Shown here in pieces: positions 5,295 to 47,501 of a DNA stretch of 64,000 bases (positions within the stretch are counted from its first letter, which is position 1; each line of letters begins with the position of its first letter). Under the pieces are notes generated by a model. That model did not search any database and was not told where the DNA came from. It saw only the letters and a list, made by a program, of their open reading frames with translations. The DNA is from Candidatus Arcticimaribacter sp. (lineage in GTDB: Bacteria > Bacteroidota > Bacteroidia > Flavobacteriales > Flavobacteriaceae): NCBI GenBank assembly GCA_965662875.1, contig CBFIJA010000002.1:5921-69920 (forward strand), given 5' to 3'. Position numbers and translations under genes: made by a program.

Positions 5295-6277
5295 AAAACA
5301 GCCTGCGCAATGGCTTTTATGTTGTCAGATTTCCCCATTGAGTAATAATGTAAAAAGGGAACTCTAGCAGCTTTTAATTCTTTGCTTTGTTCGATGCACC
5401 ATTCTATTCCAACTTGCCTAACTTGGGAATTGTCTTTACATTCCAATACCGCTTTTATAAGATCATCCGGGAGATCTACATGGAAACGATGTGGCAGGGC
5501 ATTCAATTGTTTTTTTGTTGCTAGTGGTTTTAAACCGGGGATAATGGGAACATCAATTCCAGCATCCTTGCATTTGTCTTGAAATTCAAAGAACTTTTTG
5601 TTGTCAAAAAACATTTGTGTAATGATATAATCTGCGCCTGCATCAATTTTCTTTTTCAAGAAATGCAAATCGCTTTCCAAGCTTGGAGCTTCCATATGCT
5701 TTTCTGGATAACCAGACACGCCAATGCAAAAGTCTGTTTTAGACGTATTTTGAATTTCGTCATCCAAATATTTCCCTTGATTTAAATCTGTTATTTGCCC
5801 AACGAGTTCATTGGCATAGGTATGACCGTCTTTATGGGGTTTGAAATACACTTCAGATTTTACAGCATCACCACGAAGGGCTACAACATTGTCGATCCCT
5901 AAAAAATCTAAGTCAATTAAGAAATTTTCTGTATCCTCTTTTGTAAATCCACCACATAATATATGAGGAATGGCATCTACATTGTATTTATTTTGCAAGG
6001 CTGCACAAATCCCCACTGTCCCAGGTCGTTTTCGAATGACATGTTTTTCCAGTAACCCATTTTCCAACTCCTTGTAAACGTATTCTTCTCGATGATAGGT
6101 AACATCAATAAAAGGGGGATTGAATTCCATCAACGGGTCAATCGCAGAATAAATAGACGCTATGTTTTGCCCTTTTAACGGAGGGAGAATCTCAAAGGTG
6201 AATTGAGTGTTGTTCTTTGCTTTGGCAATGTGCTCTGTTACTTTCACGAGGTTTATTTTAGGTTGGGCCTGAGCCAT
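5291..6277 (-). CDS. metF: methylenetetrahydrofolate reductase
   Basis: 328 aa. Motifs FEILPP, VALRGD and ITQMFFD are typical of MetF. Last gene of the methionine cluster. Confidence 0.85.
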
Positions 6278-13752: not shown

Positions 13753-13860
13753 TTAAATAAGTTGCTTTGGGGAAGGATTTGATGATACATCTTGAAAGCA
13801 ACACTGCTTTAGCATTTTTTTTTCGAGGTTTGCAATCAGTCAAATCCTTCCTCGTTTGTG
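13753..13860 (-). promoter_or_regulatory. structured 5' leader of the metK operon (candidate SAM-responsive riboswitch, class unassigned)
   Basis: RNA GGAAGGAUUUGA (13782-13771) and UCAAAUCCUUCC can form a 12-bp helix. An inner hairpin is AAAGCA-GUGU-UGCUUU. GUUGCUUU can instead pair with AAAGCAAC just upstream of the AUG. Confidence 0.4.
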
Positions 13861-34386: not shown

Positions 34387-34422
34387 TTTTTTTGCCTTTA
34401 AAGAAACCGCTTTTTCGTAACC

Positions 34423-34439
34423 TTCAATCAAACCACAAC
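34423..34439 (-). repeat. solitary CRISPR-repeat-like element (5' GTTGTGGTTTGATTGAA), complementary to the anti-repeat at 37934-37950
   Basis: Pairing with TTCAATCTTATCACAAT gives 13 Watson-Crick pairs, 2 G:U pairs and a 2-nt internal mismatch over 17 nt. It lies 68 nt downstream of the Cas9-like stop on the same strand. Only one copy was seen. The true 3' extent is unknown and could run to about 34404. Confidence 0.5.
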
Positions 34440-34506
34440 ACTATATTTATTTATGAAATCGTAATGGGTTAGGTAGTGTACAAAGCGAACAATGCACAAT
34501 GATGTT

Positions 34507-37500
34507 TTACGCGAAAAAACGGTTCTTTTCTAAAGCATAATCTGTTTTTTTTATTTGACCGATACAGTCTACCTCTACTTTGATGGGATTGTAATTAAAC
34601 CATCCTGTTTTTTTATCGCCAAAATTATTTATCCTTATGTAGTCCGGAAATTCTGTGCTATTGGATGTGGGTTTATAAGCCAATCGAAATTCATAGTATT
34701 TACTGGATAATTTTTGTACTCGGTATAAAATCTTCATCAAATAAGCGTTAGACTCTAAGGCTATGTTTTCCTCCAAACGATCTGCACCCATCAGAAATAA
34801 ATCGTTGGTTTTTAATACCGTAATCAAGGCGTTTTGTTCCGGTTGGGGCACCTCGACAATGGGTTTTCCTTTTGTCATTCTTTGAACTACTTCCCAAAAA
34901 CTGACTACATCTTCATGCAGCTGTCCAGCTATATCCTCATAAATCAATACATGGTGATTGTTTCTAGGGATAACAAATTGATTTTTATGGGCCTTTAATT
35001 TTACTTCCGTATTGAACGCTTCACGAATACGCACCTTTTTAATGGGAACAGGATCTCCCTTTGTGTTAGGCAAAAATAATTTGGGCTTCACCCTTCCTGC
35101 TTTATCTTTTTTGAAAAAAGTGTTTGGCGGGATTTGTTGTTTCCCGTCAAAGTTTTTTATGACCGCTTCTTGCACTAGTTTTTTAACTACTGGATCAACA
35201 ATTTTATCAACTTGATTGATTGATTTGATTTGATTTAAGGGTTTACGAATGTGAAGTGCAGTGACCTTGTTGGGGGAAGTTCGTTTTCCGTAAAAACTCT
35301 CTTTATGCAACATACCACGAACAGAGACATTGTTACTAAACACCTTGATGTCCTCTTTTTTAATCCATTTTTTTCGTGTTGAAAGGATTCTTTTTTGGCT
35401 TTTATAAGAGACTAAAATTTCGTTGAAATGCTTTGTGAAATCTTCAAAATAGTTGTTGTAAGGCCTAGGGAAACTCGTTTTATTTTGGGGCCATTTGTAT
35501 TTATTTCGCTGCTTCAAGCTTTCCAAATGCTCGGTTGTTTTAACTGCGTTGACAAAAGAACGCATAGCGCTCTGACGATAATCCAATGCTTTTGACTTTT
35601 CTTTGTATGAATTCAAAAGCAACCATTGCTCTATCAAATGCTGGGTGGTATTTCCCATAGAAATATTGACTTCTTGAAAAACAATGGACAACACACTTTC
35701 TAAACTTCTAGATATAATGTGCGGATCATTAAACTGTTGTTGTATGATATTGCGTTTGTTGTATTTTTTCACAAAACGCTGAAATTTTGTAAAACTTGCT
35801 GGATGCTGTCTAGTATTGGAGAATTGATACATCAACCGTTTTTTTATTTCCCCCCAATTTTCCATTTGAGTGTTCATAAAATATTCGTGTGGGGTTCTTC
35901 CCTCTAACTCTTCTGCGACTTCGGCAAAACAAAGAACTTTATTGAGGTGGCTGTCGTTCAAGGAAAACTCCCATGGATTGATGTATACAATTCTAATCTC
36001 TTGAGTAAAAAGGGAGGCAATTGGTATGGGTTTGTTTGTGAAAGGGCAAACTTTTTTACACTCTTCAAAGAGGTCGTATTTTAGGATATTCATAGGAGTG
36101 AGGTTCACACCTAATTTTTTGATGATATTGAAATATCGATCTCGGTTTCCTTTTATTCTTTTTTGATCAATTTTATAGATAAAGCGCTGCATCCGATTTA
36201 CTTTTAGGTCCACAGAAAGTTCACAATTGATACTGGATATTGATCCGTACTTTTTAAGCAAAGCATTCAAGACCTTTCGAAGTTCAAAAACACTTTGTAT
36301 TACAATGTTCTTATCTAATTTATGTATCAGTTTGTCCGTTTCTTTGGAAACCTCAAAATACTTTTCAAGGTTCTTATCCCTTTTTTTTGGGGGTATACCA
36401 TAAACTTTCTTGGATTTAAATTGCAATTCTGGACATGAAGCATCGAACCATGACTGAAGTTTTGAAAGTACTTCTTTGGTACTGTTTTCCTTTTTTATCT
36501 TCAATGCTGCAGTTGCAATTTCTGCTTTATTTTCTGCTGAAAGTGTCTCCCAATGGGGCGCAATAGCATTTTTTATACCGCCCAAAAAAACAGCGGTCTT
36601 GTATCGATACCCCTGACGTAAAAAAGGAAGTAAATTTCTACACGCCTTTTTACTCAACAAGGCATACGTTTTATCTAGACTAATTTTCGAAAACTGCTCT
36701 GCACAATATTCATCAAGACCAAACTTTTCTTCTGCATGTTGTTTTAACTTTTCAAGATCGTCAAAAAAATAAAGCGCATGAAAAACATCTTCTTTAAGTT
36801 TTGAATCCATGTTGAACCAATCGGTTCCAAAAAATTTATTTTTTGACATTTCATAGTCGATGAATATTCCTTTAAATATTTCATCATCTCTATAGTTGAA
36901 TGCCTTTTTATCTGGCAGTTGCAGTCTGTTTTTAAGATCTGAAAATTTAAATTTGTAGTTGGATCGTAAAAAAGCAAAAGTCACCCGTCTTTCTTCTTCT
37001 TCAAGGGGTTGGTTATTGTACTGTATTGAATTGATCCATTTCCAGGCTTCTACCTCTTGGCATTCAAAAGAAGATACACAAGCTCTTGTTTTATTTGGTT
37101 CAAGTGAACAATTGCCGACTTTGTGCTTTTGAGACTTTAAGCGCCTAAGAAAAAACACAGCCCCTTTTGGGGTTCTGTCATTTGGATTTCCGATCAGACG
37201 TTCCCTTAAACCCTCTTGGAAATGATAAAATCGAGATTGTATTTCCCATATTTTATGAATTTCATCAAAATACATTTGGGTAGAACAGATACGGTTTCGA
37301 ACCCGTTCCAACTGGTGTGTATAGCTCTTATTCTCTCTCGGCAATAGCTGAAATAAATACTCCCCTAAAGTGTTTTCTTTCACCGATCGTTGAGTTTGTT
37401 CGTAGCCAATTTTACCGTCTTCTTGACTTCCTTTATAGAGCACACTTCCTTTTAGTCTTGAATGGCGTTCGCCAAAACGATACCCCCTACGCTGTGTTAT

Positions 37501-37908
37501 TTGATAAAGTATTCGTCCCAATTCATTCAAGGAAAGCTTATCTGAAACGCCCTTTTTTCGAAGCGCATAGGGATTCATGGACAGCCATTGATCTAACTCA
37601 TCATGCGGAAAATGTTTTTTTTGTTTCCATTGTTTTAGACTTTCTAGAGCTACAGGACACATATTGTGCTGGGCTAAAATTCTAAGTAAATAATACTTCC
37701 TTGATCGAATCCTTGCATGACGGATTCTATGGAGTCGGTAATTTCGTTTACTCTTTTTTTTGGATTGTTCGCGCTTACCCCAACCGAAATTTTCACAGTC
37801 TGGATTGAACCGGTGCACTCCCATTCCCAAAATCTTCTTTCGATCGGTTTCATAAAGGGTCCAGCCGACAGCACTTGCATCCAAATAAATTCCTAGCTTT
37901 TTTGACAT
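34507..37908 (-). CDS. Cas9-like protein (type II-C-like architecture) with substituted HNH and RuvC-III catalytic residues
   Basis: 1133 aa. GIYLDASAVGW (RuvC-I), Arg-rich bridge helix RNYRLHRIRHARIRSRKYYLL, PYALRKK..LGRILYQITQRRGY, NCSLEPNKTRAC...AWKWIN, LSKKACRNLLPFLRQGYRY and INCELSVD (RuvC-II). The HNH-shaped segment is RIVYINPWEFSLNDSHLNKVL...GRTPHEYF. The RuvC-III-shaped segment is DYRQSAMRSFVNAV. Confidence 0.85.
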   Translation of the reverse strand: MSKKLGIYLDASAVGWTLYETDRKKILGMGVHRFNPDCENFGWGKREQSKKKSKRNYRLHRIRHARIRSRKYYLLRILAQHNMCPVALESLKQWKQKKHFPHDELDQWLSMNPYALRKKGVSDKLSLNELGRILYQITQRRGYRFGERHSRLKGSVLYKGSQEDGKIGYEQTQRSVKENTLGEYLFQLLPRENKSYTHQLERVRNRICSTQMYFDEIHKIWEIQSRFYHFQEGLRERLIGNPNDRTPKGAVFFLRRLKSQKHKVGNCSLEPNKTRACVSSFECQEVEAWKWINSIQYNNQPLEEEERRVTFAFLRSNYKFKFSDLKNRLQLPDKKAFNYRDDEIFKGIFIDYEMSKNKFFGTDWFNMDSKLKEDVFHALYFFDDLEKLKQHAEEKFGLDEYCAEQFSKISLDKTYALLSKKACRNLLPFLRQGYRYKTAVFLGGIKNAIAPHWETLSAENKAEIATAALKIKKENSTKEVLSKLQSWFDASCPELQFKSKKVYGIPPKKRDKNLEKYFEVSKETDKLIHKLDKNIVIQSVFELRKVLNALLKKYGSISSINCELSVDLKVNRMQRFIYKIDQKRIKGNRDRYFNIIKKLGVNLTPMNILKYDLFEECKKVCPFTNKPIPIASLFTQEIRIVYINPWEFSLNDSHLNKVLCFAEVAEELEGRTPHEYFMNTQMENWGEIKKRLMYQFSNTRQHPASFTKFQRFVKKYNKRNIIQQQFNDPHIISRSLESVLSIVFQEVNISMGNTTQHLIEQWLLLNSYKEKSKALDYRQSAMRSFVNAVKTTEHLESLKQRNKYKWPQNKTSFPRPYNNYFEDFTKHFNEILVSYKSQKRILSTRKKWIKKEDIKVFSNNVSVRGMLHKESFYGKRTSPNKVTALHIRKPLNQIKSINQVDKIVDPVVKKLVQEAVIKNFDGKQQIPPNTFFKKDKAGRVKPKLFLPNTKGDPVPIKKVRIREAFNTEVKLKAHKNQFVIPRNNHHVLIYEDIAGQLHEDVVSFWEVVQRMTKGKPIVEVPQPEQNALITVLKTNDLFLMGADRLEENIALESNAYLMKILYRVQKLSSKYYEFRLAYKPTSNSTEFPDYIRINNFGDKKTGWFNYNPIKVEVDCIGQIKKTDYALEKNRFFA

Positions 37909-37931
37909 TTGTATATTTTTTTATACATTTG
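37901..37931 (+). promoter_or_regulatory. Bacteroidetes-type promoter for the tracrRNA-like gene (TTTG-N19-TACATTTG)
   Basis: TTTG at 37901-37904, a 19-nt spacer, then an exact TAnnTTTG at 37924-37931. It overlaps the Cas9-like start codon on the opposite strand. Confidence 0.5.
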
Positions 37932-37933
37932 AA

Positions 37934-38004
37934 TTCAATCTTATCACAATAAGGCTTTATGCCGTAGATAAAATTCTTAAATCCCGCTTCGGTGGGATTT
38001 TTTT
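37934..38004 (+). ncRNA. tracrRNA-like small RNA (anti-repeat, nexus hairpin, UUCG-capped terminator)
   Basis: UUCAAUCUUAUCACAAU-AAGGCUUUAUGCCGU-AGAUAAAAUUCUU-AAAUCCCGC-UUCG-GUGGGAUUU-UUUU. The CACAAU-AAGGC..GCCGU module parallels the SpCas9 AAAAU-AAGGCUAGUCCGU nexus. The 5' end is inferred from the promoter only. Confidence 0.6.
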
Positions 38005-38413
38005 ATAAATTTTCATTGATTTTTCTCTCTTCCTCGCCCAGCATACCATAATGGTATTTTAATAACAAGGGGTAAAACCTCCATATTGAATTTCCTGTCA
38101 CTTCTTTGGCTTTGTGGAAGGCCAATTCGTTTTTTTCTAAAAAATCTAAAGTTTTACTTTTTACAGTCTCTTCCATATAATTTATGGGATCCAATAGACG
38201 TAATCTAAACCCTTTACGAACGGCTGTATACATATTTTGAGCGTCTAATTTTTGCAATAAAGAATGTTTCACTTTGTAAAATTTGGGAGAATTAACTTCT
38301 AATAACTTTTGCAATTGTTGTTCACTCATTCCTAAAGCATAGGAACGCAACATTAGAAACTCTTTTGTAGTTAATTTTTTTGAGTCATTTTGGGTCGGTA
38401 TATTTTTACTCAT
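38003..38413 (-). CDS. small LuxR/FixJ-type HTH protein
   Basis: 136 aa. LTTKEFLMLRSYALGMSEQQLQKLLEVNSPKFYKVKHSLLQKLDAQNMYTAVRKGF fits the LuxR C-terminal HTH pattern (LT.RE..vL.l.a.G.s..eia..L..s..TV..h...i..KL...n...av). No receiver domain. Confidence 0.65.
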   Translation of the reverse strand: MSKNIPTQNDSKKLTTKEFLMLRSYALGMSEQQLQKLLEVNSPKFYKVKHSLLQKLDAQNMYTAVRKGFRLRLLDPINYMEETVKSKTLDFLEKNELAFHKAKEVTGNSIWRFYPLLLKYHYGMLGEEERKINENL

Positions 38414-38608
38414 AAGTAGTGATATATATAGTGTTATAGCATCAAAAATGACACTCTTACCAAAACTTTCAATGCTACTTGTAAGGGCCGGTTGGTTTAA
38501 ATGGTTATCTGGTCAAATCGTGTTCTAGGTGGTTATAATTTTTTGTAAGCGTTGTTTCTTGTCGTATTTTGCATTTCGTTATCGTATTTTTTGGTGTATT
38601 TTAGCACC

Positions 38609-38812
38609 ATGGAACTTTTTCTAATCTCATTTGTTTTAATCGGTCTTGCTTTTGCGGGAATTGCCATCAAGATTTTGGTAAAGAAAGAAGGTAAGTTTGC
38701 AGGTACGTGTGCCAGTCAAAGCCCTTTTCTCAATAAGGACAATGAACCTTGTGGTTTCTGCGGAAAGCTCCCAGATGAACAGGAATGCCGAAATCCTGAA
38801 GTGATAAAATAA
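38609..38812 (+). CDS. small membrane protein with a Cys-rich tail (NqrM/DUF539-like?)
   Basis: 67 aa from MELFLISFVLIGLAFAGIAI. One TM helix, then GTCAS..x14..CGFCG..x8..C. The family assignment is tentative. Confidence 0.4.
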   Translation: MELFLISFVLIGLAFAGIAIKILVKKEGKFAGTCASQSPFLNKDNEPCGFCGKLPDEQECRNPEVIK

Positions 38813-38852: not shown

Positions 38853-39416
38853 ATGGAGGATAAAGCCATTGCGAACGCCATTTTACTTGCCAAAAAAAAC
38901 AATCAAAAAGCTTTTGCTCTGCTTTATGATGCCTATTGGGAGTATTTGTTTTCTTATTTGCTCAAAAAAAATATCCCTGAAGATCTAGCAGAAGACCTTG
39001 CCATTAAAACCTTTTCTAAAGCATTTGATAAAATAGCGACTTACGACGCTAAGTATACATTCAAAACTTGGCTCGTTACCATTTCCAAAAATCTTCACAT
39101 TGACCAACACCGAAAAGACAAAAAGCAAATTCAATCTAGAAATGAATCGCTAGAAATCAGTCAAATTCACAATGTGATGGATGAAAACCCTTCGCCAGAA
39201 GATTTGTTGATTACAACGCAAAACCTCAAAGGTTTACTAAAACAAATAAAAGGATTAAAACCGGTATACAGCAAGGTAATCAAGCTTCGCTATCTACAAC
39301 AGTTAAGCTATAAAGAAATAAGTGATGAGATGAATTTACCGCTCAACACAGTGAAAGTAACACTTCTAAGGGCCAAAAAAATATTGGCTGAAAAAATCAT
39401 CAATGAAAAAATTTAA
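38853..39416 (+). CDS. ECF-type RNA polymerase sigma-70 family factor
   Basis: 187 aa. Region 2 (DLAEDLAIKTF...FKTWLVTISKNLHIDQHRK) and region 4 (KLRYLQQLSYKEISDEMNLPLNTVKVTLLRAKK). Confidence 0.85.
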   Translation: MEDKAIANAILLAKKNNQKAFALLYDAYWEYLFSYLLKKNIPEDLAEDLAIKTFSKAFDKIATYDAKYTFKTWLVTISKNLHIDQHRKDKKQIQSRNESLEISQIHNVMDENPSPEDLLITTQNLKGLLKQIKGLKPVYSKVIKLRYLQQLSYKEISDEMNLPLNTVKVTLLRAKKILAEKIINEKI

Positions 39417-40614
39417 TCTTCAAAAACTGGGTCCAGGCTTACTCTTTGCTGGTGCGGCCATTGGGGTTTCGCATTTGGTACAATCAACACGGGCTGGAGC
39501 TGATTTTGGCTGGGGTTTGTTGTGGGCTTTAGTGTTGTCCAACCTTTTCAAGTATCCCTTTTTTCAATTTGGCCCACGGTTTGCCTTGGCGACAAATAAA
39601 AATTTACTGGAAGGGTATTTTCACCTCGGAAAGCATTATCTGTGGCTCTATTTTTTTCTAAACATGGCTACAATGTTTACCATTCAAACTGCGGTAACCA
39701 TTGTTACTGCAGGACTTGCCTCTTCCATTTTTGGAATAACGGCTGACTTGGTTGCATGGAGTGCATTAATTACCGCTCTTTGCCTAATTCTTTTACTTCT
39801 TGGGAAATATAAACTCTTGGACAAGGCCATAAAAGCCATTATTTTACTTTTGACCCTATGCACCCTAATCGCTGTAGTTTGGGCAGGACACAAAAACACA
39901 TCCCCTTTAGAATTTTCACAAATAATTCCTCACGGAAACGAACTTCTTTTTTTAATTGCATTTATGGGATGGATGCCTGCTCCTCTGGACATTTCCATAT
40001 GGCAATCTTTATGGGCTTTGGAAAAGAAAAAAACGGAAAAGCTCAGCTATAAAGAGGCTTTATTTGACTTTAATGTTGGCTATATCGTTACGGTAGTACT
40101 TGGAGTTTGTTTTGTTGGACTGGGTGCTTTTGTCATGTATGGATCGGGGACTCGTTTTTCTAACTCAGGAGGAGAATTTGCCAATCAGTTGGTTGCATTG
40201 TATACCCAAACACTTGGCGAAGAACTTTATGTTTTTATTGCCATCGCTGCCTTTACAACCATGTTTAGTACGACTTTGACAACGCTGGACGCCTCTCCCA
40301 GAGCAATGGAGAAAACCATGAATTTACTATTGCCAAAAATTAATTTTTTCACTTATCGCTTTTGGATTTTAGTTTTGGCCAGCGGAACCCTCTTTATTTT
40401 TGCTTTTTTAGCATCAGAAATGGGGAGATTAGTAGCTATAGCTACAACCTTGTCTTTTATCACTGCACCCTTGTATGCTTTTTTAAATTTCCGCTTGGTA
40501 ACAGGAGATCAAATGCCCCTAGATGCACGTCCTAAAAAAGGCTTATTGGTTTTAAGCTTAGTAGGTTTACTCTTTTTAAGCGGCTTTGCGATTGGCTTTC
40601 TCTTCACCCTATAA
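39403..40614 (+). CDS. polytopic membrane transporter, NRAMP-like divalent cation transporter family (tentative)
   Basis: 403 aa with about 11 TM segments. The N-terminal [25 protein letters not shown] resembles short Bacteroidetes Nramp-family proteins. Overlaps the sigma gene by 14 nt. Confidence 0.55.
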
Positions 40615-47423: not shown

Positions 47424-47426
47424 CTG

Positions 47427-47501
47427 TGGGCGCTGAGGGATTCGAACCCCCGACCCCCTCGGTGTAAACGAGGTGCTCTGAACCAACTGAGCTAAGCGCC
47501 C
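47427..47501 (-). tRNA. tRNA-Val (anticodon TAC)
   Basis: Hand-folded sequence GGGCGCT-TA-GCTCAGTTGGTTCAGAGC-A-CCTCG-TTTACAC-CGAGG-GGGTC-GGGGGTTCGAATCCCTC-AGCGCCC-A. Confidence 0.9.

Follow-up and report, generated by a model that had tools for sequence, protein, structure and literature searches.

A nuclease-dead type II-C Cas9 with a conserved guide–repeat unit in marine Flavobacteriaceae, a probable natural RNA-guided regulator

At the locus described here, a gene for a Cas9 protein of type II-C architecture is flanked upstream by a divergent trans-activating CRISPR RNA (tracrRNA) and downstream, just past its stop codon, by a single guide–repeat unit. The locus lies in a stretch of 64,000 nucleotides (nt) from Candidatus Arcticimaribacter sp. 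(GCA_965662875.1, contig CBFIJA010000002.1, positions 5,921–69,920 of the forward strand), the whole of which was analysed and is referred to below as the window. The features of the system are arranged in the window as follows, where crRNA denotes CRISPR RNA and aa denotes amino acids.

34404–34422, minus strand: what is left, in degenerate form, of the 3' part of the 36-nt ancestral repeat, today part of the closing stem and of a terminator-like tail (matched by eye to the repeat of active relatives)
34423–34439, minus strand: repeat-derived crRNA segment GUUGUGGUUUGAUUGAA, predicted to pair with the anti-repeat TTCAATCTTATCACAAT
34440–34453, minus strand: near-invariant 14-nt seed UAAAUAAAUAUAGU, immediately 5' of the repeat
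34440–34473, minus strand: fixed guide in the spacer position (from conservation in related loci)
34482–34488, minus strand: 5' arm of a long-range stem around the guide–repeat unit, pairing with the 3' arm AAAGCGG (34408–34414)
34490–34500, minus strand: remnant of an upstream repeat, ATTGTGCATTG (read by eye), about 61 nt ahead of the functional repeat, the canonical period being 65–66 nt
34507–37908, minus strand: nuclease-dead Cas9 of type II-C architecture, 1133 aa (Pfam HNH_4, sequence matches in the PDB, structural matches of an AlphaFold2 model)
37924–37931, plus strand: probable Bacteroidetes –7 box of the tracrRNA, TACATTTG, which fits TAnnTTTG
37934–38004, plus strand: tracrRNA (fold z-score, conservation, covariation and likeness of its scaffold to that of active relatives)
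37934–37950, plus strand: anti-repeat TTCAATCTTATCACAAT, 25 nt beyond the cas9 start codon and divergent from the gene
37951–37964, plus strand: nexus AAGGCTTTATGCCG, directly after the anti-repeat
about 37966–37978, plus strand: stem-loop 2, covarying
37979–38004, plus strand: GC-rich terminator hairpin with a covarying stem, followed by a U-run

The protein shows the split RuvC domain, the inserted HNH domain, the bridge helix, the recognition (REC) lobe and the C-terminal region that interacts with the protospacer-adjacent motif (PAM), as expected of a Cas9. In Pfam it matches HNH_4, and its matches to RuvC_III and Cas9_a are weak. GeoCas9/ThermoCas9 gave the best phmmer match in the PDB (E = 1.6e-29, residues 2–337 and 533–825), and the AlphaFold2 model (predicted local distance difference test score, 71) was aligned by Foldseek with Nme1Cas9, ThermoCas9, CbCas9 and SauCas9 over ~1100 columns (E ≤ 1e-29). 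The catalytic motifs of both nuclease domains are replaced: GLD by GIY in RuvC-I, (D/E)H by VY in HNH, and DHRHHAxDA by DYRQSAMRS in RuvC-III. These replacements bear out the proposal of an earlier note on this DNA that the protein is a non-cutting Cas9, as far as residues can predict it.

Related loci were collected by a scan of one genome per species, which yielded 66 loci, all from metagenome-assembled genomes of marine Flavobacteriaceae/Flavobacteriales such as Candidatus Arcticimaribacter. In all 66 species-level loci, cas9 is convergent with a DUF456 gene at one chromosomal position, and this single syntenic site indicates long vertical inheritance. An alignment of 146 Cas9 homologues splits into a dead clade and a catalytic sister clade. 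Throughout the dead clade (~45 proteins, 31–100% identity) the RuvC-I aspartate is replaced by Y, F, S, H, R or T, the HNH (D/E)-His by V-Y, and RuvC-III reads DYRxxAxxA, whereas every catalytic residue is intact in the sister clade (35–40% identity). The RuvC-II glutamate is retained in the clade of the window and lost in deeper clades, and the bridge-helix arginines R58, R61, R66 and R70 are invariant. Intact open reading frames (ORFs) of 1118–1145 aa are found in 35 loci, including the window, across deep clades. The ratio of nonsynonymous to synonymous substitution rates (dN/dS) is 0.07–0.12 in three independent pairs (dS 0.8–1.4) and 0.06 in a fourth pair whose dS is saturated (dS range overall, 0.8–2.9); with dN/dS of 0.06–0.12 over three sub-clades, selection on the dead protein is thus strongly purifying.

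On the RNA side, the repeat-derived sequence GTTGTGGTTTGATTGAA (34439–34423, minus strand) begins 67 nt past the Cas9 stop and is the sole copy in the window. Set against the anti-repeat without gaps, 15 of its 17 positions pair, with 13 Watson–Crick and 2 G:U pairs around a central UU/UU mismatch, and the computed energy of the duplex is –16.1 kcal/mol. This direct count agrees with the earlier note in its coordinates, in the number and kind of pairs, in the central 2x2 mismatch and in a first pair that is G:U and adjoins AAGGC on the tracrRNA side, as in the repeat:anti-repeat duplexes of Cas9 systems. The note had also described a single copy with no second repeat, and within the 64-kb window this holds, as neither a further copy of the repeat core (≤2 mismatches) nor a tandem array was found. 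Furthermore, Cas1 and Cas2 of a relative (L309, see below) have no tblastn match in the window or in the 66 loci with their 6-kb flanks.

The tracrRNA (71–75 nt) folds with –17.9 kcal/mol (z = –3.39), is arranged like the tracrRNA of a Cas9 system and is found in each locus with a full-length gene whose contig reaches far enough. A TAnnTTTG-like box stands 4–8 nt ahead of the anti-repeat in related loci, from which we infer that transcription would start at the anti-repeat and limit the duplex to ~17 base pairs (bp). To measure pairing, guide, repeat and tracrRNA were joined in one alignment of 33 distinct loci and the paired cells were counted against slid partners: 90.9% of cells are paired, compared with 35–47% in the slid controls, and changes on both sides occur in nine pairs. 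In stem-loop 2, an AU pair is changed to GC in 7 sequences and a CG pair to UA in 11, and the stem of the terminator covaries too. The 12-bp core of the repeat:anti-repeat duplex is paired in 33/33 distinct sequences, with position 7 varying among G:U, A:U and G:C. Whether this complementarity is conserved or co-varying had been posed as a decisive question in the earlier note; pairing is kept in all loci and, relative to the active relatives, includes an A:U to G:C change compensated on both sides. No Rfam family matches the tracrRNA or the guide–repeat unit.

The guide–repeat unit recurs in every one of the ~60 related marine Flavobacteriaceae loci that reach its position (60 units aligned). 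Pairwise identity is 0.90 in the 45-nt block of 28-nt guide and 17-nt repeat, compared with 0.61–0.64 in its flanks (67 nt upstream and 43 nt downstream) and, for reference, 0.66 in the coding DNA of DUF456. The comparison of this flank in related genomes, which the earlier note had suggested, thus finds the unit conserved and its surroundings scrambled, and supports the fixed, genome-encoded guide predicted there. The seed TAAATAAATATAGT (≤1 mismatch) is found in 43 related loci and in the window and always immediately precedes GTTGTGG, except for one unrelated one-mismatch match in L040. Conservation of the guide declines away from the repeat, as expected of a Cas9 seed; the block CCUAACCCAUUACGAUUUCAUAAAUAAAUAUAGU is conserved in the clade of the window, and 25–34 nt are conserved within clades. 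The deeper clade carries two units, 52–74 nt apart, with seeds ending in AGTTAAAATTT and TAAGTATAGT, and its upstream unit, ATTGTGATTTGATAC, is capable of pairing with the tracrRNA. A tandem duplication of the whole guide–repeat unit, with copies 185–237 nt apart, was also seen in L006 (9472, 9657) and L045 (9496, 9733).

Comparison with active relatives indicates where the unit comes from. P0039/L307 and P0043/L309 have arrays of 89 and 36 repeats, with a period of 65–66 nt and a 36-nt repeat, GTTGTGGTTTGATTAAAGATTAG(A/G)AA(A)CA(C)CGATATT. In L307 the array begins ~80 nt past the cas9 stop on the same strand, and in L309 cas1–cas2 lie nearby. The repeat of the window is identical to the active repeat GTTGTGGTTTGATTAAAGATTAGAAAACACGATATT over its first 14 nt and agrees with it at ~24 of the first 29 positions (by eye); at position 15 an A has become G, matched by T to C in the anti-repeat. 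The tracrRNA of the active relatives is likewise divergent and upstream, with an anti-repeat of 25 nt or more and a scaffold nearly identical to that of the window. The promoter box of the tracrRNA lies nearer in the dead clade, so that the anti-repeat is shortened to the 16–17 nt that still pair. An upstream-repeat remnant is also present, clearer in L003 (ATTGTGTTGATAAGC) than in the window, and remnant, spacer and repeat together are, on this reading of their layout, a degenerate repeat–spacer–repeat mini-array. The unit is evidently the descendant of an ordinary array, retained and reshaped, not merely eroded. The earlier note had named the eroded edge of an ordinary array as a possible origin, and active relatives do carry such arrays at this position; passive erosion is not what is seen, because unit and spacer persist among lineages whose Cas9 proteins are 31–50% identical.

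The anatomy of the locus, the loss of catalytic residues, the purifying selection, the conservation and pairing of the RNAs and the descent from an array are all observed here. We consider it probable that they represent a domesticated, non-adaptive, nuclease-dead type II-C system with one hard-wired guide, that is, a natural nuclease-dead Cas9 (dCas9) regulator and not an immune system. A non-functional relic, in which a CRISPR-Cas remnant decays and the repeat is the edge of a lost array, would fit the ordinary arrays with the same repeat at the same place in active relatives, and also the deletion of most of cas9 in about a quarter of the species and the frameshifts in some full-length copies. 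Such a relic is very improbable, as it is at odds with the low dN/dS and the 35 intact ORFs over deep clades, with the compensatory changes in the tracrRNA, and with the excess of identity in the unit over its flanks.

How the guide RNA of the proposed dCas9 regulator would be made is suggested by a stem that encloses the unit. The bases right behind the stop codon and those right behind the repeat form complementary arms in nearly every locus, although the sequences of the arms differ between loci, as in L008, where CCCTTTCCTCAA pairs with TTGAGGAAAGG; a T-run often follows the 3' arm. Across 35 loci, cognate arms form duplexes of –18.5 kcal/mol on average, compared with –12.0 kcal/mol for non-cognate arms. 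The stem of the window itself is weak (7 bp, –12.5 kcal/mol). Because the stem joins post-stop with post-repeat bases, an origin of the guide RNA in the 3' untranslated region (UTR) of cas9, as put forward in the earlier note, is plausible. The stem presumably serves excision or termination. The note's companion statement, that no strong promoter box precedes the guide, stands insofar as no consistent TAnnTTTG box is found there, but the nearest box is TCGCTTTG at 34481–34488 and not at 34479–34486.

The following mechanism can be drawn from these features. The unit would be transcribed with, or just behind, the cas9 mRNA, and the stem may excise the RNA or terminate it. The 16–17-nt repeat segment would then pair with the 5' end of the divergent tracrRNA, and the crRNA:tracrRNA pair would load into the dead Cas9. 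The resulting complex would hold a single fixed guide, near-invariant in its repeat-proximal 14 nt, and may bind a conserved DNA site beside a PAM without cutting it, likeliest in a promoter, thereby changing transcription there.

The guide points to the kind of site. Its complement, ACTATATTTATTTA, contains TATATTTA, one base off the Bacteroidetes –7 consensus TAnnTTTG, and the target is therefore probably the –7 region of a promoter. The same class of sequence forms the promoter box of tRNA-Leu in four loci and occurs as ACTAAATTTA/ACTATAT just upstream of the start of p136, a neighbouring gene described below. Taken one step further, these abundant marine Flavobacteriaceae would possess, family-wide, a vertically inherited natural dCas9 that occupies a conserved promoter at its –7 region together with the tracrRNA and one fixed crRNA. 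Such a hard-wired, RNA-guided transcription factor would be the first derived from type II CRISPR, and the LuxR-type helix-turn-helix (HTH) neighbour or the neighbouring extracytoplasmic function (ECF) sigma factor might take part; on this fuller version our judgement is evenly balanced.

Several individual candidates for the target were considered and set aside. The tRNA-Leu promoter has a 9-nt match, ACTATATTTG, in L003, L010, L013 and L066; the match does not occur in the window, and its own sequence is that of a consensus –7 box. Upstream of p136, ACTATAT lies 5–25 nt before the start (window 38414–38445, plus strand, with equivalents in L001–L025) and is complementary to the final 7 nt of the guide, and ATATAGTGTT is common to this region and to the guide/repeat junction in the window. 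The p136 motif changes without a change in the guide, however, being ACTATAT in the clade of the window and ACTAAAT(TTA) elsewhere, and is better read as a –7 box. With up to 3 mismatches, a 15-mer of the guide finds no second site of note, either in the window or among the 66 related loci. In a metagenomic contig (L251, Ga0307487_1000295, 5539–5557), a 25/26-nt match to the guide of the window's clade, the best of the metagenome matches listed apart from a variant crRNA locus, ends 1 nt before the start of a GIY-YIG-like gene, next to a DUF262-like gene (GmrSD-type, by eye) and near a type I restriction-modification-like gene, in an apparent defence island. This site was rejected as a target, since it is not syntenic and is by estimate within chance expectation.

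A number of results weigh against a guided dCas9 regulator. Elsewhere in the window, 15/17 pairs with the anti-repeat are also attained at two unrelated sites, and shuffled windows average 0.7 such sites, while the unit alone folds no better than shuffles (z = +1.0). As pairing within the single window is at chance level, the case rests on comparison with other genomes, and the repeat is regarded as non-random because of its 14-nt identity to the repeat of the active relatives, its position and strand, which are those of their arrays, and its conservation. A dedicated crRNA promoter was not found, as the related loci show no TAnnTTTG box whose distance is consistent. With respect to a target, neither the window nor ~850 kb of related loci contains another copy of the 14-mer (≤1 mismatch), and autoregulation at the cas9/tracrRNA promoter, in the manner of the long tracrRNA, was rejected, as a 9-nt seed match there is limited to L001 and unconserved. 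Among the viral 14-mer matches listed (at least 120), contexts are random and the level is that of chance; the viral 18/19-mer scan gave 19 matches, estimated at or below chance, 9 of which fall in three contig groups; and among the metagenome matches listed (at least 120), one is a variant crRNA locus and the rest are at chance level. Frameshifts interrupt cas9 in 8 of ~42 full-length loci. Finally, the guide–repeat unit is conserved as well as elsewhere in 15 species that have lost most of Cas9, and the reverse complement of the guide resembles a –7 box and could thus be an antisense promoter.

The last two points lead to a different explanation, in which the block is a cis-acting element independent of Cas9, either an antisense promoter (TATATTTA in the complement) or a terminator or processing structure between the convergent cas9 and DUF456 genes, and the likeness to a repeat reflects ancestry. 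In the 15 species (L049, L053–L066), just a C-terminal stub of Cas9 remains, comprising the last 40–290 codons (e.g., L062, 5896–6300), and the tracrRNA is gone; the deletion junctions are all different, and in L056 and L063 the HTH gene is fused in frame to the Cas9 tail. That the unit is equally conserved there favours a cis element, as do ACTATATTTG and ACTAAATTTA/ACTATAT, which show that such sequences are promoters in these genomes, and the T-run that often follows the closing stem. The search pattern sits in the Cas9 tail, however, so that only young remnants are visible and detection is biased to recent deletions; relaxed selection on the unit in the stub species was not detectable in this comparison, which is biased in the same way. 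Equal conservation in the stubs may thus reflect recent losses together with detection bias, or else a role of the block independent of Cas9. Furthermore, all 14 positions of the seed are fixed, including the free 'nn' of the box and bases beyond it, a –33 element is missing at the proper spacing, and the deeper clade's two units do not carry the box in register. An antisense RNA would cover 3.4 kb of cas9 with no evident product, and the kept and compensated anti-repeat pairing would go unexplained. On balance, we think a cis element of this kind unlikely.

A second alternative retains the guided Cas9 and assigns it to defence: a fossil spacer would be directed against a conserved promoter of a phage or mobile element, which dead Cas9 would silence without cutting. 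Cas12c and Cas12m effectors silence in this manner, and spacers derive from invaders. Six IMG/VR contigs from two related phage groups (L313, L316, L323, L327, L310 and L321; GC 33–35%) contain ACTATATTTATTTA(A/T)TGAA in a 45-nt gap between genes for 629 and 280 aa. These contigs are identical to the L014 and L010 variants of the guide over 20 to 22 nt, and the gap is promoter-like and lies between structural-looking genes; the number of matches is at chance level. The 19 viral 18/19-mer matches are likewise at or below chance, and extra matching bases are themselves expected by chance. In addition, a guide that stays fixed while Cas9 diverges to 31–50% identity would need an equally stable target, which is unusual for phages, and no adaptation module was found in a search that covered the window and the 66 loci with flanks of 6 kb. 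Hard-wired defence therefore appears quite improbable to us, and regulation of a host promoter by the dCas9 remains the reading we prefer.

Further features of the window and its surroundings are listed below.

38003–38413, minus strand: p136, a small LuxR/GerE-type HTH protein of 136 aa, directly upstream of the tracrRNA (profile matches in Pfam and the PDB)
38609–38812, plus strand: small Cys-rich membrane ORF, in an apparent operon with the ECF sigma and Nramp genes
38853–39416, plus strand: ECF sigma factor, in the apparent operon, divergent from the HTH/Cas9 side
39403–40614, plus strand: Nramp-type transporter, in the apparent operon, divergent from the HTH/Cas9 side
13799–13859, minus strand: SAM-II riboswitch, 75.6 bits
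30067–30149, minus strand: tRNA-Leu(TAG)
47426–47501, minus strand: tRNA-Val(TAC)

Within the p136 family, 14 of 20 orthologues match Pfam GerE (best 2.7e-8), and a profile of the family matches LuxR-type DNA-binding domains in the PDB with E = 2.7e-7; the C-terminal domain of ~65 aa belongs to no known family. By tblastn, p136 is present in 24 loci of the clade with a single unit and missing in L005, and it is absent from the loci that have lost Cas9, save for partial pieces in L049, L056 and L063. By association, p136 is a possible accessory factor. A partnership with the ECF sigma factor was considered and is not favoured, as linkage is weak: the gene is divergent, is kept after the loss of Cas9, as is the arrangement of the whole apparent operon, and is absent beside the deeper clade. 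In that deeper clade (L023, L026–L036, L041–L044 and L050), a conserved non-coding block is situated between the tracrRNA and a PpiD-like gene, ~100–400 nt upstream of where cas9 starts. It consists, in order, of CCTTTTTTGCCC, a GTAGCA...TTTTTTGCTTTGATTGTTATGCTAC hairpin and a GGTCGGG...CTCGACC hairpin, and could be an additional RNA or else a regulatory region.

A natural counterpart to dCas9 would be of interest, as dCas9 is among the most used engineered tools in biology. If the proposed reading holds, the protein would be a DNA-binding Cas9 that is compact and has been optimised by nature, with a crRNA:tracrRNA duplex of 17 bp, and the family would let one test how a spacer turns into a regulatory guide that is fixed. 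Which gene this bloom-associated clade of marine Flavobacteriaceae would control in this way is a tractable question.

Compared with canonical type II-C systems of the Flavobacteriales (L307 and L309) and with Nme1Cas9 and GeoCas9/ThermoCas9, the system is alike in the architecture and size of the protein, in the divergent upstream tracrRNA with the same nexus and hairpins, in the first 14 nt of the repeat, in the UU/UU interruption of the duplex, and in an RNA locus ~70–80 nt past the cas9 stop on the same strand. It is distinct in that the catalytic residues of RuvC and HNH are replaced, no cas1 or cas2 is found at the locus, one fixed spacer stands in place of 36–89 variable ones, the anti-repeat measures ~17 nt where theirs has 25 nt or more, and inheritance of the locus is vertical, its place on the chromosome being fixed.

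In the Cas9–scaRNA–tracrRNA system of Francisella novicida (scaRNA, small CRISPR/Cas-associated RNA) and with the long tracrRNA of S. pyogenes, a natural single guide, genome-encoded, non-adaptive guides reportedly direct Cas9 to bind and regulate host DNA in place of cutting invaders. The Cas9 proteins involved are said to be catalytically active, to avoid cutting through matches of 11–15 nt, and to coexist with arrays and adaptation genes. The system proposed here resembles them in combining Cas9 and tracrRNA with a genome-encoded, non-adaptive guide, whereas its nuclease is dead, its array is gone and its guide occupies a true spacer position; unlike with the S. pyogenes long tracrRNA, no autoregulatory match is found at the cas9 promoter. 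The analogy to scaRNA drawn in the earlier note is apt only as a concept: the mode of action may be alike, and the dead Cas9, the true spacer–repeat position and the lack of an endogenous match in the window and the related loci set the system apart from that group.

The II-C2 variant, a phage-encoded, SNF2-linked Cas9 with a dead RuvC, an active HNH and no spacer of its own, has been proposed as an anti-CRISPR mimic, and no other inactivated variant of type II appears in the survey of 2023 or in the CRISPR-Cas classification of 2025 (PMC10910872, PMC12669027). Both it and the present system comprise an array-less type II-C Cas9, a tracrRNA and an inactivated nuclease domain. By this precedent (PMC10910872; PMC12669027), the dead protein and its tracrRNA might be a decoy that soaks up crRNAs of another type II-C system. 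We find that scarcely credible, because the locus is not phage-borne but sits on the chromosome with its synteny kept in every species, RuvC and HNH are both dead here and HNH is retained in the phage variant, the neighbouring genes include no SNF2, a conserved spacer–repeat unit belongs to the locus itself, and the assemblies concerned showed no further type II system. In the literature searched, we found no natural Cas9 that is fully nuclease-dead and has a guide of its own.

For the dCas9 regulator proposed here, the nearest functional parallels are TldR, derived from TnpB, and dCas12f–sigmaE, dead RNA-guided nucleases with a fixed guide beside the gene that occur in Bacteroidetes including Flavobacteriaceae; in these systems a guide match of 13–14 bp suffices, and HTH and ECF sigma genes lie nearby (PMC10705468, PMC13472631). 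Shared with them are a dead effector under purifying selection, an adjacent guide whose conservation suggests that it is fixed and a near-invariant 14-nt seed close to their 13–14 bp. A LuxR-type HTH gene (p136) and an ECF sigma gene also lie near the present locus, the former directly upstream in the single-unit clade and mostly lost along with Cas9. By comparison, the present effector is of Cas9 ancestry with an HNH insertion and not of TnpB or Cas12f ancestry, its guide would be a dual crRNA:tracrRNA and not a single RNA, and, as distinct from dCas12f–sigmaE, its ECF sigma gene is divergent, weakly linked and kept when Cas9 is lost. If the proposal is true, Cas9 was recruited as TnpB (TldR) and Cas12f (dCas12f–sigmaE) were, and every major lineage of RNA-guided nucleases would have been co-opted for gene control.

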